DNA of 64,000 nt from a virus (lineage: Duplodnaviria; Heunggongvirae; Uroviricota; Caudoviricetes): the IMG/VR virus record IMGVR_UViG_2713896908_000007; one strand, given 5' to 3'. Below, piece after piece: positions 5,270 through 10,036 of this stretch. The position numbers and the translations under genes were made by a program. How positions within the stretch are numbered: position 1 is the first letter of the stretch; each line of letters opens with the position of its first letter. A model generated the notes under the pieces. It worked only from the letters and a program-made list of their open reading frames with translations. It was not told where the DNA came from and ran no database searches.

Positions 5270-5531
5270 TGGTTATCCCTCAATAAAAGTGACATATTTA
5301 TTAGATTGCGGTGCCGGGTGCCTCCCGGTGACGTTAACCAGTTAACAATTAACGCCGGAATGTTTAATCATCAAGGAGGATTGTTTTAACTGTTCCGCGT
5401 GCGCTTAGCCGAATTCACCGCAATGGTAAGAGCACTTGGCTGGCTGGGCGGCGATGACGCCTGTACGCATTTGGTGATCCGGTTCTGCTTCCGGCATTCG
5501 CTTAATTAGCCAAATACTCTTAACGTTGCGC

Positions 5532-5618
5532 TGGTGGAGAGTAATGGAATCGAACCATCATCGCTTGCGCAATGGGACGGTTTTCAAGACCGCTTGAGCG
5601 CCATACTCCCTACTCTCC
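5532..5618 (-). tRNA. tRNA-Ser (anticodon UGA), type II with long variable arm
   Basis: 87 nt; anticodon loop CTTGAAA; variable arm ATTGC-GCAA-GCGAT hairpin; T-loop TTCGATT; encoded CCA. Confidence 0.7.
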
Positions 5619-5859
5619 AATGATTGTGGTGGTCGGTGCTGATCTCCGACTGCGCCTCTTTTTTTCATAGCCCATAAGGCCGGTCAGTGCGCTTGATGAC
5701 TGAGGCATCGATATTTACTACGCCGCCTCGTTGCCATAGGGCGGACTTGCGCGCCAGCAACGCGCATTCACCACAACGGAAAGAGCATTCACGTCTCGCA
5801 TCGCGGGAAAAAGCCCACGGTAGAGAGTCGAACTCTACAAATGCTCTTACCTGTTGTGC

Positions 5860-5992
5860 TGGTGCCGGTTAACGGATTCGAACCGCTGACCTCTGGCCTA
5901 ACATCGAATCGTTGTCATTTGACCAGCAAGGCTGTCTACCGAAGTAGAAACGATGCTTTGGCTCTCGTGCTCTCCCACTGAGCTAAACCGGC
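5860..5992 (-). tRNA. atypical 133-nt tRNA-like gene: tRNA 5' and 3' portions separated by about 57 nt of inserted sequence
   Basis: 5' GCCGGTT-TA-GCTC-AGTGGGA-GAGC (acceptor and D arm); 3' AGCGG-TTCGAAT-CCGTT-AACCGGC-A-CCA; acceptor halves pair; no canonical anticodon arm found. Confidence 0.35.
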
Positions 5993-5994
5993 AT

Positions 5995-6070
5995 TGGCGA
6001 TGGTGGGTGGATTCGAACCACCGACCAGTTAGTTAACAGCCAACTGCTCTAACCGCTGAGCTACACCATC
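5995..6070 (-). tRNA. tRNA-Asn (anticodon GUU)
   Basis: 76-nt cloverleaf GATGGTG...CTGTTAA...GGTTCGAATCC...CACCATC-G-CCA. Confidence 0.85.
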
Positions 6071-6730
6071 ACTTGCCGGGTACGTCTCCGGCGAGGGCTT
6101 CCACCTCCGTATGCTTTTCGGCGCACCGCGCCCTGGCTGCAATTCGGTAACAGGGGATGCATAACCCTGGCTTCCAGCGTGATTAGCGCTTTCAGCATGA
6201 CGGGATATACCCGTAAATTCGTGGAACTGTACCCAAAGTGCTGTTAAGCACCGCTGTTACGCTGAAAAGAAGACGCAACAGGAAAGGACGCTGACCAACA
6301 GATGGCCCCTTCTCGTTCATCTGGTTAATCACACCAGCGCCCTTACCTGTTGTGCCTCCCCGTTCCCTAATACACAGACGGGGACACTCTGCGGTCGATT
6401 TTTTGACGGGGGACGACTCATACCCCGTGGCGTCTGGCTTCTTAGGCCGCAGCCATCATCAGATCATCGTTTGCATTTACTTTAATGGTCAGTTTCTAAA
6501 CCGCCGCAAAGTCGCTAACCATGACGAAAACCCTGAAAAAACGCCCACCCGAAGATGGGCAAACAGGATGTAAGCTCGTTACGCATTTCGGTATTGCCAC
6601 TTAGGCGTATGGTCAACCTGGCAACTCGGCGTCATGAGGGGGAAGGAGTCACTACCCCGCCATACTTGCCGCCGCGCCTGTCGCGGCTAACAGCTAAATC
6701 GCTCTATAAATCACGATTCATTGAAACCAT

Positions 6731-6758
6731 ATTACACTAATAAATTTATTAGAGCAAT
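6731..6758. promoter_or_regulatory. pair of overlapping, inverted P1 C1-repressor-type operators
   Basis: AAATTTATTAGAGCAAT (17/17 to the remembered consensus ATTGCTCTAATAAATTT, reverse orientation) overlapping ATTACACTAATAAATTT (15/17). Confidence 0.6.
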
Positions 6759-9700
6759 ATAGCAATAACGTCATGAGCTACACCACGAGTGTTCCCCTTA
6801 CAAGACACAGAACGTCTGGCAAAAAGAGGTTCCACTCTGAAGCCACTGTCTTGGTAAAGCTCCCTGATGTTTGGCGCACCACTATTAGTAATGAGGATCT
6901 TTGCACCTCGGCGATGAGCATCCATTAGCAGAGATACCAGGCGTTTTTGCTCTTCAAACTTAAAGTCATGACCGGAATAGTTTGTAAACCCCTCTGTATT
7001 GGGGAGCGGTTCATACGGAGGATCGCAAAAGATGACATCTCCTTCTCCGGCAGCTTCAATCACCGCTGAAAAATCACCACATACAAACTCAGAACGCCCT
7101 TCAGCACCAAGGAAGGCTTCCATCTCCTGTAATGGGAAATACGGAGTTTTATACTTCCCATAACCAACATTAAACTCACCGGCCTGGTTGTAACGCGTCA
7201 ATCCGTTAAAACAATGTCGGTTCAGGAACAAAAACGCTGCTGCACGATGTAAATCATCATAGGCTTGTTTGTTAAACGCATTCCGTACTGCCAGGTATCC
7301 TTCCTGTGTGTTGTAGTCCTGGAAAAACCGATGCGCCAGAGTGATAAGTGAATGACCCTCACGTTGCAGAGTCCTGTAAAAGTTAATCAGGTCAGCATTC
7401 ACATCATTTAGCAGATTTTCTTGATATCCGGCATTTATGAAGACAGCTCCGCCACCAACGAAAGGCTCGATCAGGCGCTTTCCGTCAGGTAAATGCCTAA
7501 AGATTTGTTCAAGAACACCAAATTTTCCGCCGACCCATTTAAATATGGGACGGTCAAATTCTGCCGTTAGCTTAACTCTCCGTTCTGTTGCTTCATGATT
7601 TTTTGCCTGCTGATATGCAGCCTTAATAATCCGCTCACCAATCCATCGCATTACTGGTATCGCCATGCTATTGCCGATCGCTTTGTAACGCGGTCCGTCA
7701 GCTGCAAGCATCGCGGCCTCTTCTTCGCTTAAATCTGGATAGTGATTGCGAAGGTATGCCAGTTCATCTGAAGTAACTTTTTTACGCTTTTCCGTCGGGA
7801 TCAACGTATGCCCATCAGGAAAACCTTGCAGTCTTTCACATTCGACAGGGGTAAGACGGCGGACAGCTACTGCTGCGTTTCCTACGTCATAGCAAACGGC
7901 TGTTGTATTTTTGGCCATTAAAGATGGTGAAGTATTCTTAGTTGCAGCATGTTGTGTACCGCTCATACGCTCAGGAAAAGCCAATGTAACAAGATGCTCA
8001 TGGCTTTCTTGCTCACGTGCCCGCAATGTACCATGCCCTTCTGACCAAAAACCTGCTCCTGTGCTGCTAAAAACTGCAAGGTCAGTGGCATCTTTAAAGT
8101 CTCTCGCCTTTACTGTCGATGCGGTTTCATCGCCAATATATTCCCCAAATGCCGCCATCCTGAAAGCGTTTACGGCTTTCGTCGATTTCATACCGGGGGT
8201 AATGTCAGCGTGTAGGCATGGATTTAGGCTTTCGCCACTGATTGCAGCGCCATTTGCAATAATGGCGGAAGCGATTTCCTTCTTTTTTCGGCTCGGCGCA
8301 ATATTCCGGCGCACGCCTTCGAACTCAAAAAGTACCGTTGCGGGATCGAGGTCTGTTCGAGCACTTGCGACAACAAACACGCGTCGGCGTCGTTGTGCCA
8401 CTCCGAAGTATTGGGCATCAAGGATTCTCCAGGCCACCTTTCGCTGCGGTCCATAAATACAACCACACTGCGGCCACTTTGGAGCATGGCAACCGGTTTT
8501 GCCATCCCACCGCCAGAACGCGTTACTTTTTCCTGATTCAGGTCGATCACCTGGTTCAAATGGCGCATCTTCTCCAGCCAATCCGGCAAGGAAACATCCG
8601 AAGGCGTTATCTGCCGATGACAAGACTCCTGGGACATTTTCCCAGACGATAACGGCTGGTTTGAGAAATGACTCAGCCCGTTTGTCGTCAATTGCATTTG
8701 CAAGCTCCACATACTTTAAAGTTAGCGCGCCACGCTCATCATCAAGCCCACCACGTAATCCCGCGATACTGAATGCCTGACAGTTATGGACCACCGCACC
8801 ATTGAGAATATAGGAATGATCACCTTCGACTTCTATGTTGTATACAGTATCTAGGCCTACCGATTTAAACTCTTTGACTGTTCGTAAAAGCATTCCATGA
8901 GCCAATCTTGATTTACGTGACAATTTCTGCGGGCAGATTGTTACCTGATAATAATTCCGTTGATTTACCACGCGATCCTCGATCACTTTTTTGGGCTCAA
9001 CTTCAATAAAGCTGACCGAAGAAACATAACCACAAGTCTGTGACACCCCCGCAACGCCCCAAGCAAGCGCAGGACTAACACTATTAATTCTAAATCCCGC
9101 TTTACCACTTGGTGTCCCATCAGTATCAAGATAGCCTTGTAAAAACACATGACGCAATGGATGCGACATCACCCATGCAGGGATACGCTTAGCATGGCTT
9201 AACTCGCCAAAATGTTCATTAAGCCAATTGGCATAACACGTATCATTCAAGGTTACTTTGATGCTCCCTCGGATTTCTCTTGCCACGGAAAATATGTTTT
9301 CTGGTATGCGACAATGAAACTTTCTCAATTTCTGGCAATTTATGCCAAAAACAACCGCCTTCTTAGATTTACCTCTCCATCTCCTAATATATCCATCGCC
9401 AACATAAGCGCCCGCAAGATACATAGCCTGTTCTTCAGACAAGAACCGAGAACAAATATCTGGAGATGCAATATTGAAATTAGTTAGAGCGCACCATTGA
9501 TATCCTGGCATATCACATGCTGCTCGCCATTCCGGTTCAGACAACAACTCTCTCTTAAAATATGTGCCATTTTTCCGGGTGTTTTGGGCTTTCCACCGAA
9601 CAGCCAGGAAGGGATGGTCATTGGTTGTTCTTATACCTAAAGGCTGCCCAACGGCATTAAGTAACCCCGTATTAGCTATTTTTGAACCAACTCTTTTTAC

Positions 9701-10036
9701 TTGTTGTAACCGCCCGAGATGACTGACTACGTAATCGCCAGGGCAAACATCTTCTATTGGTTTATAACCATTTTTACAAAGAACCATATGCCCCGCGGTA
9801 AAACATGGTGTTCCCCCGACGAGCACGTCAGGGGATTCGATTTCCCCAGCCAGGACTTTTTTGGCAAGTTTAGTCATGTCGTCAAGGTTGGCGACATGGG
9901 GCCAGCGGTGCGCAAGAACGGCCGATGGAAAAGACTCGATTTCAGCAAACCACGCCGGACGCATACCCAACGGTTCCCAGGCAATACTCGCGGCTTCAAT
10001 TCCACTGCAAACAGATCCATAGCACAGCTCTTTCAC
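6749..10036 (-). CDS. dmt: bifunctional DNA methyltransferase (N-terminal C5-cytosine MTase, C-terminal Dam-like N6-adenine MTase) with an intein
   Basis: C5 motifs ([30 protein letters not shown]) then Dam motifs ([22 protein letters not shown]); GTG start overlaps the hrdC stop. Confidence 0.85.
8783..9805 (-). other. intein (341 aa) with LAGLIDADG homing-endonuclease motifs, inserted before the catalytic Cys of C5-MTase motif IV
   Basis: GGTP|CFTAGHMVL...TNDHPF...[10 protein letters not shown]...[10 protein letters not shown]...[13 protein letters not shown]|CQAFSIAG; excision restores [12 protein letters not shown]. Confidence 0.8.

Follow-up and report, generated by a model that had tools for sequence, protein, structure and literature searches.

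What lies in the long gap between the tRNA-Asn gene and dmt of P1/P7-like phages, where no protein is annotated? We examined this spacer in a window of 64,000 nt (the whole stretch analysed; IMG/VR record IMGVR_UViG_2713896908_000007), in which a first-pass annotation had described a GC-rich, non-coding interval at about 6071–6730 and had suggested a structured leader or small RNA of the tRNA-ban transcript. The gap is real, and its exact span is 6071–6748, because tRNA-Asn ends at 6070 and the dmt open reading frame (ORF) at 6749. Relative to its own genome it is indeed GC-rich (0.535 for 6071–6730 versus 0.467 ± 0.046 for 660-nt windows of the 64,000-nt window; top 3.4%), although in absolute terms this value is only moderate. 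The description of its ORFs as short and of low quality also held: the longest encodes 73 aa (6352–6573, plus strand), none of the four longest has a Pfam match, and a conserved coding signal was sought in homologues and was absent, with no reading frame on either strand open throughout the homologues of the spacer. The GenBank records of P1 and P7 annotate no CDS here.

The hairpins reported in the spacer were found again as a terminator (6565–6542), a hairpin at 6354–6274 and two pseudoknots with compensatory changes, and the spacer lies, as had been claimed, downstream of the C1 operator pair on the tRNA strand, with the promoter Pban also upstream. The scan against covariance models of known RNA families that had been proposed as a check returned nothing above threshold in the spacer; Rfam scans of the spacer and of one whole carrier phage gave sub-threshold noise (mir-465, Ysr49, AdoCbl-II and others) plus a weak tmRNA_permuted alignment. 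Rather than one leader, the spacer is a succession of minus-strand RNA modules, which are arranged with its flanks as follows.

6729–6758, minus strand: promoter Pban (−35 TTGCTC at 6757–6752; −10 TAATAT at 6734–6729)
6731–6758, both strands: bivalent C1 operator Op72/Oban (ATTGCTCTAATAAATTT, 6758–6742 on the minus strand; ATTACACTAATAAATTT, 6731–6747 on the plus strand)
6594–6726, minus strand: module A, a 5′ leader RNA with a conserved core at 6687–6594 (‘dicF-like region’ in the P1 annotation)
6536–6565, minus strand: intrinsic terminator from a terminator scan (stem UGUUUGCCCAUCUUCGGGUGGGCG followed by U6; stem region 6565–6542)
6353–6535, minus strand: tmRNA-like 183-nt element (antisense arm, linker, tag frame, H5-like hairpin and pseudoknots PK2 and PK3)
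6274–6354, minus strand: long imperfect ‘cassette’ hairpin (CACAACAGGUAAGGGCGCUGG ... CAGCGUCCUUUCCUGUUGCG)
6071–6214, minus strand: P1-lineage block, directly upstream of tRNA-Asn
5995–6070, minus strand: tRNA-Asn (GUU), the first gene past the spacer (ARAGORN; Rfam tRNA, 71.7 bits)

Positions of Pban and its operator were transferred from the P1 record AF234172 and the P7 record, according to which this operator controls the tRNAs and ban. The stretch overlaps the last codons of dmt, an automated promoter scan made no call at Pban, and transcription probably starts near 6722. The first module of the transcript, module A, matches lambdoid and Stx prophages by BLAST (81–83% identity over query positions 45–137, ~90 nt), and in mEp460 the match sits directly upstream of dicB. 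Aligned with the dicB operons of Qin/mEp460-type prophages (alignment A6), its core is the homologue of the segment directly upstream of mature DicF, including a hairpin at 6625–6594 (GUUGCCA...UGGCAA) that covaries (GUUGUCA/UGACAAC versus GUUGCCA/UGGCAA). DicF of Qin is a trans-acting antisense small RNA of a prophage, and we rejected the identification of module A as DicF itself: the similarity lies upstream of the 53-nt DicF, the DicF segment is not conserved in the alignment, and the Rfam DicF model (RF00039) has no match in the spacer even at E ≤ 10. Unlike the dicB leader, module A is followed in P1 not by mature DicF but by a terminator of its own.

This terminator closes module A and adjoins the 183-nt element. 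Homology to D6 begins at its hairpin, and it is kept in P1-like variants in which module A has been replaced (upstream sequence L061). The possibility that its hairpin serves as an acceptor stem pairing with tRNA-Asn was dropped, the match being a chance one of 6 nt. Part of the transcription from Pban should stop at the terminator, and since no promoter was found between Pban and the element in P1, expression of the element there needs read-through. We tentatively regard the spacer as the 5′ portion of the P1/P7 tRNA-ban operon, under C1 repression and presumably transcribed.

The element is not confined to this operon. The segment 6532–6356 is 71–88% identical to unannotated DNA in unrelated phages, and the element occurs in at least eight phage groups, including Ackermannviridae, Gamaleyavirus, Drexlerviridae, Akiravirus, Deseoctovirus, Carvajevirus and Roufvirus. 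P1-like plasmids carrying it are present in 561 of 5,426 complete E. coli genomes (~10%); a scan of a bacterial genome collection returned five true members and five chance matches. Model R1 finds exactly one copy per locus (in the window, 6358–6486 on the minus strand, 115 bits), and the orientation is always that of the neighbouring tRNA genes. Unrelated lytic phages without a ban gene carry the element with its own sigma-70 promoter, and in Akira, C1, ZX4 and pIS4-A a TTGACA-17-TAGATT promoter puts the antisense arm within ~5 nt of the transcript start. The earlier view of the spacer as a structured leader or small RNA therefore survives in part: it is non-coding and structured and lies between Pban/Op72 and the tRNA-ban genes on their strand, but it is no single leader peculiar to the tRNA-ban transcript, because its core (6535–6353) is an autonomous RNA module, present in ban-less, unrelated lytic phages. 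We found no description of the element in the searchable literature; the AcrIIIA1 paper deals with fragments of host tmRNA and is unrelated.

What kind of RNA is this core? Its parts, all read on the minus strand, are as follows.

6492–6534, minus strand: antisense arm (blocks AGGGUUUUCGUC at 6534–6523, AGCGAC at 6516–6511 and UUUGCGGCGGUUUAGAAAC at 6510–6492)
6475–6491, minus strand: linker UGACCAUUAAAGUAAAU, ending in a UAAAU context just before the resume codon
6442–6474, minus strand: tag frame GCA AAC GAU GAU CUG AUG AUG GCU GCG GCC UAA (ANDDLMMAAA-stop)
6435–6455, minus strand: H5-like hairpin UGGCU-GCGGCCUAAGA-AGCCA, with the stop codon in its loop
6394–6427, minus strand: PK2 (stem 1, CGGGG 6427–6423 with CCCCG 6411–6407; stem 2, GUCG 6417–6414 with CGAC 6397–6394)
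6357–6393, minus strand: PK3 (stem 1, CGCAGA 6393–6388 with UCUGUG 6378–6373; stem 2, UCCCCG 6384–6379 with CGGGGA 6362–6357)

The element is almost certainly a conserved structured RNA related to the tag and pseudoknot region of tmRNA. Like the mRNA-like domain of tmRNA, it has the UAAAU|GCA resume context and a short frame that ends in Ala-Ala and a stop. Linker and resume region share 26 of 28 positions with a bona fide permuted tmRNA (L082), the motif TAAATGCAAACGAYRAT otherwise typifies genuine tmRNAs, most of them permuted, and the Rfam tmRNA_permuted alignment covers the linker and tag region, at a score (21 bits) below the gathering score of 47; the corresponding values for beta_tmRNA are 9.3 and 84.

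The tag is under coding-type constraint. Every member examined has exactly 10 codons and a stop, across 19 nucleotide versions, six phages selected by BLAST and all 27 versions of a tag-blind sample, whose members were chosen only through the pseudoknots. These 27 versions encode 15 peptides, a single peptide being specified by up to four nucleotide versions, and use TAA, TAG and TGA as stops. Diversity is higher at third codon positions (0.44) than at first (0.26) or second (0.21), and codon 10 is GCN with all four bases seen at its third position. A hairpin encloses the stop codon in 17 of 18 lineages, in a stem register that varies between lineages.

A single-sequence fold of the element is no more stable than shuffles (z −1.0), so the structural evidence is covariation. 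For PK2, 95% of cells are paired, eight of nine pairs show changes on both sides and none of 500 shuffles reaches the score; its crossing stem, which was not fitted by the covariance model, is compensatory at all four pairs. PK3 was counted on stems extracted by position rules blind to complementarity, because MAFFT and the first covariance model placed the P1-type PK3 two columns off. Here pairing holds in 98% of cells, 8 of 10 pairs show compensatory changes and again 0 of 500 shuffles reach the score, with stem 1 paired at six of six positions in 13 of 13 variants and stem 2 at four of four in 11 of 13. The PK3 loop, (U)AUUA, is conserved.

The half of tmRNA that carries the amino acid is missing. 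ARAGORN found no tmRNA in the window or at any of 42 element loci, and a scan for T-arm and acceptor features within 1.5 kb on either side of the element in seven lineages gave no shared candidate. Phage CS01 carries the element in a complete 48-kb genome without any tRNA, tmRNA or Rfam match. Upstream of the tag, PK1 and helix 2 are absent, and the ~60 nt that precede it consist of the antisense arm and the short linker. A lineage-specific tRNA-like gene with G3.U70, A73 and CCA lies near the element in L077, which belongs to a low-GC group, and in the window a tRNA-like gene with an insertion lies near it at 5868–5993.

In place of these domains, the 5′ arm is complementary to nt 68–104 of E. 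coli tmRNA (UAAA..GCCGCAA..AGUCGC.AAC..GACGAAAAC), that is, to the 3′ strand of PK1, the −1 region, the resume codon (nt 90) and codons 2–5. Local alignment of the reverse complement of the arm with tmRNA scores 33, compared with 15.4 ± 2.3 for shuffles (z 7.6; 0/1000) and 14 for the sense-strand control, and cofolding of arm and tmRNA yields a ΔΔG of −24.8 kcal/mol against −5.8 ± 2.8 for shuffles (0/300). Because cofolding with the tag region of the element itself gives only −12.5 kcal/mol, and the sense part of the element is not significantly similar to E. coli tmRNA (z 0.4), the target of the arm would be the host tmRNA and not its own tag region. These measures replaced an RNAduplex comparison of 60 nt with full tmRNA, which gave z of only −1 to −4 on a background inflated by the long interior loops that it allows.

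The complementarity, computed for all lineages against E. coli tmRNA (L127) only, recurs widely in the family. Arms of other enterobacterial lineages reach z 4.5–11.6, always at tmRNA nt ~68–106, and of 88 members picked by their pseudoknots, 83 reach z ≥ 4 on that interval. In 18 loci scanned from −150 to +400 it is confined to the 5′ arm, and no second antisense contact that would close a tmRNA ‘ring’ was found. Three complementary blocks are conserved, separated by spacers of differing length; the Aeromonas-type members L033 and L074 keep only an 11-nt match to E. coli tmRNA. The predicted duplex with tmRNA is broken by bulges, and the arm may be partly occluded, because the minimum free energy (MFE) fold of the single element sequence pairs part of it with the element’s own tag region. 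On this evidence, the element probably acts by pairing with host tmRNA. The stretches GUUUUCGUC and GCGAC lie within the arm, which differs in other phages: it has GCGGC/UCUUGCGG in phiEa2809 and is short in pAh6-C.

How could an RNA with both a tag of its own and an arm against the host tag be used? We infer that the element is a tmRNA-derived ‘coding piece’ without a tRNA-like domain, its 5′ end replaced by an arm antisense to the one-piece tmRNA of the host, and its make-up suggests that phages block or re-program ribosome rescue through it. Our working proposal, held with some reserve, is that the coding piece docks on host tmRNA and swaps its tag template in trans, so that proteins would receive a tag specified by the phage. 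The RNA would be made early: in P1 by read-through from Pban, in lytic phages from a strong sigma-70 promoter of its own. Processing at the flanking hairpin and tRNA would free it from the tRNA precursor. Its 5′ arm would pair with nt ~65–105 of host tmRNA, sequestering the 3′ strand of PK1 together with the resume codon and codons 1–5 of the tag, and the phage strand would exit the duplex on the PK1 side, offering UAAAU|GCA, the 10-codon tag, a stop in the H5-like hairpin and two pseudoknots. Host Ala-tmRNA–SmpB would still perform the rescue, and the ribosome would resume on the phage template and add (A)ANDDLMMAAA instead of (A)ANDENYALAA. That the phage tag is translated in this way, via the host tRNA-like domain, is in our estimate slightly less likely than not. 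Against a template swap, host tmRNA may simply lose its activity once its tag region and the 3′ strand of PK1 are locked in a duplex, and the ribosome would have to resume on a template that base pairing alone holds at this position.

If pairing only inactivates tmRNA, the element would be an antisense inhibitor or decoy that blocks tagging or triggers RNase III cleavage of tmRNA, with a tag that is never translated and a tmRNA-like body that merely binds tmRNA partners (S1, SmpB, RNase R) or stabilizes the RNA. To cover the host resume codon and first tag codons is the simplest way to stop tagging, and both the missing tRNA-like domain and the missing second tmRNA contact fit this view. We nevertheless consider it somewhat unlikely, as it leaves unexplained a fixed 10-codon frame with an Ala-Ala end and a fixed stop, synonymous changes, interchangeable stop codons and the retention of a tmRNA-type resume context.

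The coding-type constraint on the tag, together with the conserved complementarity to tmRNA, also goes unexplained if the element is, much as first suggested, purely a leader or processing platform in cis, whose structures set the stability, attenuation or RNase P/E/III processing of the tRNA-ban precursor and whose likeness to tmRNA is ancestry without present function. In favour of such a role, several phages have the element inside a tRNA precursor, with long hairpins and tRNAs as its neighbours, and in P1 a terminator precedes it; its presence in tRNA-less CS01 and in phages without ban makes the role improbable.

We give little credence to a genuine two-piece tmRNA, in which the element would be the coding piece and the acceptor piece some phage or host RNA, distinct from tmRNA, that has escaped recognition, such as an odd tRNA-like gene nearby. 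Permuted tmRNAs are the closest relatives of the tag region, and tRNA-like genes with insertions do lie near some loci (5868–5993 in the window; the L077 gene), but no partner is common to the lineages, none exists in the whole CS01 genome, and the 5′ arm has no acceptor-strand features and matches host tmRNA instead. There is a very small chance that the element is an inert ssrA fragment left by recombination or imprecise excision. Fragments of ssrA, an integration site, are known in prophages (PMC9004378), but these are ssrA 3′ ends rather than tag regions; the element occurs in strictly lytic phages, its sense part is unlike host ssrA, its two pseudoknots are kept by compensatory change and its tag is intact in every copy, the one truly decayed copy (L065) looking different from intact ones. 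A small protein, for example that of the 73-aa ORF at 6352–6573 on the plus strand, is hardly credible: in the P1 lineage and several others no stop interrupts this frame within the element, and some phage records annotate hypothetical proteins here, but the frame is broken in L084, L056, L132, L093 and L005 and lacks a Pfam match, indels between lineages are not multiples of three, and variation tracks base-pairing, not codons.

Trans-translation is the main ribosome-rescue path in bacteria and a drug target, and to our knowledge its handling by phages is largely unknown. Against this background, the element is a widespread, never-annotated phage RNA, present in textbook phage P1, whose sequence points to contact with tmRNA exactly at the resume codon and to a tag of its own. 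Should the template swap hold, it would be the first natural case of a tmRNA using a template from another genome, the tag region would be deliverable in trans to a one-piece tmRNA, and a phage could alter the fate of truncated proteins, for example during defence by cleavage of mRNA or tRNA. Should the element only block tmRNA, it would be a natural antisense inhibitor of trans-translation. Standard tRNA and tmRNA finders and Rfam miss this whole class of tmRNA relatives.

Among known systems, two-piece (circularly permuted) tmRNAs are described from alpha-proteobacteria, some beta-proteobacteria and cyanobacteria, and marine phages such as Melnitz (Keiler 2000; Sharkady & Williams 2004, as cited in PMC9004378). 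Like their coding piece, the element is a separate RNA with a resume context, a tag ending in Ala-Ala-stop, an H5 hairpin and a following pseudoknot, and base pairing would have to hold it to a tRNA-like partner; the layout of PK2 is that of L007 and L082. Unlike them, it has no acceptor 5′ strand, helix 2 or PK1 and is not accompanied by an encoded acceptor piece, its tag is short and fixed at 10 codons, and its arm is antisense to the tag region of another tmRNA, the one-piece molecule of the host. Complete tmRNAs are encoded by ~2.3% of phage genomes according to ARAGORN (PMC9004378), and the element resembles these in being phage-borne, among tRNA or early genes, with a tmRNA-type tag. They possess a tRNA-like domain and are found by ARAGORN, whereas the element is detected by ARAGORN in 0 of 42 loci and scores below all Rfam tmRNA thresholds.

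With E. coli ssrA the element shares a 10-codon tag that starts A-N-D and ends in Ala-Ala (host ANDENYALAA), a stop codon placed in a hairpin loop, and downstream pseudoknots, of which, past the tag, E. coli tmRNA has three and the element two; it differs in lacking the tRNA-like domain and PK1, and its 5′ arm is complementary, not homologous, to host tmRNA. The 5′-proximal, interrupted pairing with a host RNA, the early promoter and the release from a longer transcript that we propose would resemble those of DicF-type antisense RNAs, except that the target would be a non-coding RNA of translation rather than an mRNA and that the pairing arm, of ~40 nt, is joined to a tmRNA-like body of 140 nt that contains a reading frame. 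Phage T4 has stable RNAs C and D that are co-transcribed with its tRNA cluster; the element is likened to them, as a non-tRNA RNA within a phage tRNA precursor, by position alone.

Downstream of the element, the cassette hairpin (6354–6274) folds at −37.9 kcal/mol (z −4.7; 0/200 shuffles fold as well). Its stem sequence flanks varied inserts in many phages (L022, L024, L033, L056 and L128–L133), and processing at this hairpin may define where the element ends on its 3′ side. The P1-lineage block (6071–6214) is almost invariant in 20 P1-like variants; a search found no homologues of it beyond the P1/D6 lineage, and its fold is no better than shuffles (z −0.9). Between these two modules lies a variable hairpin (6262–6238), in which pairing is kept via a compensatory change.

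Between tRNA-Asn and dmt, the window carries two conserved modules of different ancestry, resolved by sensitive BLAST against phage genomes (294 records). The window is a P1/P7-like punavirus (5300–6800, 96% identity to phage P7 and about 94% to P1), and the P1 and P7 GenBank records have a matching gap downstream of Pban and the bivalent C1 operator Op72/Oban, annotated as controller of the tRNAs and ban. The first-pass annotation of a GC-rich, non-coding spacer was borne out: the gap spans 6071–6748 (GC 0.535 versus 0.467 ± 0.046 in same-size windows, top 3.4%), its hairpins are real, its ORFs are short (longest 73 aa; Pfam match in none of the four longest), and every frame on both strands is closed somewhere among homologues.

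Features of the spacer and its flanks (window coordinates)
5995–6070, minus strand: tRNA-Asn (ARAGORN and Rfam)
6071–6214, minus strand: P1-lineage block, 144 nt, directly upstream of tRNA-Asn
6262–6238: hairpin with compensatory variation among P1-like plasmids
6354–6274, minus strand: very stable imperfect hairpin (−37.9 kcal/mol, z −4.7)
6535–6353, minus strand: module B (the element), with antisense arm, linker, ten-codon tag frame, H5-like hairpin and pseudoknots PK2 and PK3
6565–6542, then U6: strong intrinsic terminator ending module A
6726–6594, minus strand: module A, leader RNA with conserved core 6687–6594
6734–6729 and 6757–6752: Pban −10 and −35 hexamers
6731–6747 (plus strand) and 6742–6758 (minus strand): operator half-sites
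6749: end of the dmt reading frame (ORF call)

The proposal of a structured leader or small RNA for the tRNA–ban transcript was only partly right, as the content is a widespread, apparently new phage RNA family, derived from tmRNA and, as we infer from sequence, aimed at host tmRNA. Module B (6532–6356) is 71–88% identical by BLAST to unannotated DNA of unrelated, mostly lytic phages, and it always runs in the same direction as neighbouring tRNA genes or the genes that flank it. Of 5,426 complete E. coli genomes, 561 carry the P1-type element (592 places, 581 on plasmids, none annotated), as do genomes of Pseudocitrobacter, Pantoea, Rouxiella and Rosenbergiella. An invariant TAAATGCAAACGA stood out in the first alignment, with GCN GCN TAA further along in the same frame; this reads as a tmRNA tag.

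Carriers of module B and tag peptides
Window: ANDDLMMAAA
Ackermannviridae: phiEa2809 (ANDNEFKVAA), Menlow (ANDNTFLAVA), PhiSH19, phiMAM1
Gamaleyavirus: Bp4 (ANDDVVLMAA), ECBP1
Drexlerviridae: CS01 (ANDDLMLMAA)
Akiravirus, Deseoctovirus, Carvajevirus, Roufvirus

A scan of IMG/VR for TAAATGCAAACGAYRAT yielded loci of two sorts: those with long tags ending in ALAA, many of them called by ARAGORN, mostly as permuted tmRNAs, and those with 10-residue tags, none of which (0/42) received a tmRNA call. Over the linker and resume region, 26 of 28 positions agree with a permuted tmRNA. The suggested scan with known covariance models aligned tmRNA_permuted to the tag region, at 21 bits against a threshold of 47, while a model of the family itself found exactly one copy per locus (window, 6358–6486, minus strand, 115 bits) and no match in E. 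coli ssrA. In Ackermannviridae (L003, 663–3688; L006, 2300–4300), the 2–3 kb around the element are unannotated or hold only tiny opposite-strand ORFs and resemble extensive non-coding RNA regions that precede the tRNA cluster; two of these ORFs that overlap the element, CPT_Menlow_039 and 040, are probably spurious. One IMG/VR contig (3300045988_169992, ~2290–2450) exemplifies a non-functional copy: this decayed P1-type element has lost PK2 and retains an intact tag frame, with sequence following a transposase-like ORF in place of the antisense arm.

Covariation supports the fold. PK2, directly after the tag hairpin, has 95% of cells paired and both-side changes at 8/9 pairs; its crossing stem, which lies outside the model, is compensatory at all four pairs (GUCG/CGAC, CCGA/UCGG, CUAG/CUAG, CCAA/UUGG), and 0/500 shuffles reached the PK2 score. 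For PK3, with stems extracted by position rules blind to complementarity, 98% of cells are paired and 8/10 pairs are compensatory. In 17 of 18 lineages a hairpin loop holds the stop codon, as it does in helix 5 of tmRNA. To avoid circularity, a second, tag-blind sample was drawn via the pseudoknots only (pattern AATTCGGCGCA...TGATTAATAA), which yielded 95 different upstream sequences and, at the nucleotide level, 27 different tags. All 27 contain exactly ten sense codons and a stop (TAA, TAG or TGA), for 15 different peptides, and codon positions 1, 2 and 3 have per-site diversities of 0.26, 0.21 and 0.44. GCN stands at codon 10 throughout, with all four third bases, codon 7 alternates between CUG and UUG, and one peptide can be written in as many as four ways, with GCA/GCU and AAC/AAU changes at the first codons among the differences. 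Among phages chosen by BLAST only, tags were intact in 6/6. The frame has neither a Shine-Dalgarno sequence nor a start codon, and the other frames are closed; by its substitution pattern, the tag behaves like a translated frame.

The element lacks the tRNA-like domain that defines a tmRNA and is therefore not to be filed as one. ARAGORN found no such domain or tmRNA for it, and a T-arm and acceptor scan of ±1.5 kb found nothing common to lineages and nothing whatever in seven of them. Cronobacter phage CS01, whose genome (48,195 bp) is complete, carries the element and has no tRNA, tmRNA or Rfam match. In a low-GC phage group (L077, ~2146–2227), a tRNA-like gene with G3.U70, A73 and encoded CCA, lacking a normal D-arm and an ARAGORN call, lies about 215 nt downstream of the element and is possibly an alanine-accepting partner in that lineage only.

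Upstream of the tag, the most conserved motif, AGUUUUCGUC, is the reverse complement of GACGAAAACU, codons 3–6 of the E. coli tag (tmRNA from NC_000913). The reverse complement of the 60 nt ahead of the linker aligns to tmRNA nt 68–104 with 29 matched positions in blocks UAAA, GCCGCAA, AGUCGC, AAC and GACGAAAAC, scoring 33 versus 15.4 ± 2.3 for shuffles (z 7.6, 0/1000) and 14 for the sense strand. Arms of other enterobacterial lineages hit the same interval (z 4.5–11.6), and in the pseudoknot-selected sample 83/88 reached z ≥ 4 on nt ~68–106; the match is short in Aeromonas-type members. Cofolding the window arm with tmRNA nt 60–112 gave a ddG of −24.8 kcal/mol versus −5.8 ± 2.8 for shuffled arms (0/300) and only −12.5 with the element's own tag region. 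The predicted duplex contains bulges, and the arm may pair in part with the element's own tag region. Three complementary blocks are kept while their spacers vary in sequence and length (0 to about 9 nt). Across 18 loci (−150 to +400, 50-nt windows), the two windows covering the arm gave the sole consistent tmRNA signal, and no second contact was found. Because the sense part is not significantly similar to E. coli tmRNA (z 0.4) and the arm is complementary to it, the element is not a copy of host ssrA; it is an end complementary to host tmRNA joined to a remainder resembling a foreign, two-piece-type tmRNA.

A coding-constrained frame without ordinary initiation, the missing tRNA-like domain (in some phages absent from the whole genome) and the predicted pairing of the conserved arm suggest, as the most economical model, that a coding piece docks on host tmRNA and replaces the host template; we put this tentatively at slightly below an even chance. 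The complementarity spans the PK1 3′ strand to codon 5 of host tmRNA and, since pairing is antiparallel, the phage strand would emerge from the duplex towards PK1 and, beyond 17 nt of linker, offer its own UAAAU|GCA roughly at the start of the host tag region (11 nt after PK1). This would be a variation on natural two-piece tmRNAs, in which base pairs hold the coding RNA to the acceptor RNA. A simpler alternative, in which the RNA does no more than block or destroy host tmRNA, is consistent with arm pairing but leaves the tag constraint unexplained, and we consider it rather unlikely. Complete phage tmRNAs are already known, from 2.3% of phage genomes (PMC9004378); a literature search that covered few subscription journals found no description of a tmRNA relative without a tRNA-like domain, an RNA antisense to tmRNA or these tag peptides.

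Akira, C1, ZX4 and pIS4-A share a TTGACA-17-TAGATT promoter whose end lies some 7 nt ahead of AGAUAGUUUUCG, which places the arm at the extreme 5′ end of the RNA; the Akira unit continues with hairpin cassettes, tRNA-Met and a terminator. No internal promoter was found in the P1-type spacer. Since Pban and the module A terminator both precede the element in P1 and P7, it is presumably made there by read-through on de-repression. Upstream of the element in L024 (~900–1010), a promoter-like TTGACT-17-TAAATT and a strong terminator, AAGCCCTGAGTTAATAGCTCGGGGCTTTTT, within about 60 nt suggest a further phage RNA of very small size; L048, L056 and L084 also have this terminator ahead of the element.

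Module A (6687–6594) is 81–83% identical by BLAST to lambdoid and Stx prophages, its match in mEp460 lies directly upstream of dicB, and its hairpin covaries (GUUGUCA/UGACAAC in prophages versus GUUGCCA/UGGCAA in the window). A DicF gene was ruled out: because alignment with Qin matches module A to the segment immediately before mature 53-nt DicF, not DicF itself, and the Rfam DicF model is unmatched in the spacer, the 'dicF-like region' annotated in P1 is best read as a relative of the DicF precursor. A match to the Rfam family STnc100 exceeds its gathering score (50.3 versus 47) at 5307–5422 (minus strand), upstream of the terB/tciA homologue, and in Qin the same element sits between dicF and dicB (GGTGAATGCGGCTGAGCGCACGCGGAACAG... 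in L135), which makes at least two RNA modules common to lambdoid dicB operons and the leader of the P1 ban operon.

In the remaining spacer, the 6354–6274 stem (CACAACAGGUAAGRGC.../...GCYCUUUCCKGUUGUG) surrounds different inserts in many phages and probably marks a processing site. Across 20 P1-like variants, block 6214–6071 hardly changes, unlike its neighbours. Its homologues are confined to the P1/D6 lineage, and an 11-nt string of the block, GUGGAAGCCCU, also occurs in PK3 of E. coli tmRNA, perhaps by chance. Between tRNA genes of unrelated phages there are arrays of cassettes, each with a variable insert enclosed by a long imperfect stem, CACAACAGGTAAGAGCATT ... AGTGCTCTTTCCGTTGTGG (window 5859–5771 and 6354–6274, minus strand; also L022, L024, L033, L056 and L128–L133). 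Some inserts contain a T-arm-like hairpin (for example GTAGAGTTCGACTCTCTAC, window ~5839–5821) or a conserved motif, CCCTTATGGGGCTTGGCTTAAATGCA, and the cassettes may be processing signals or tRNA-like remnants.

A tRNA-Thr-like gene (5868–5993, minus strand; no ARAGORN call) keeps the acceptor stem, D-arm start and T-arm of P1/P7 tRNA-Thr, with the anticodon arm replaced by a structured ~57-nt insertion including a UUCG-capped hairpin; candidate readings are a disrupted tRNA, an intron-like insert and a tRNA-like RNA. The tRNA-Ser(UGA) at 5532–5618 (minus strand) scores 37.7 bits with the tRNA-Sec model, below threshold, and appears to be a normal class II tRNA in which the variable arm is long. 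The gene dmt (6752–10036, minus strand) encodes 1,095 aa versus 754 aa in P1, with an intein-like insertion (CFTAGHMV...VVHNC) within the C5-methylase part and Pfam Hint_2 and LAGLIDADG_3 between the DNA_methylase and MethyltransfD12 domains.
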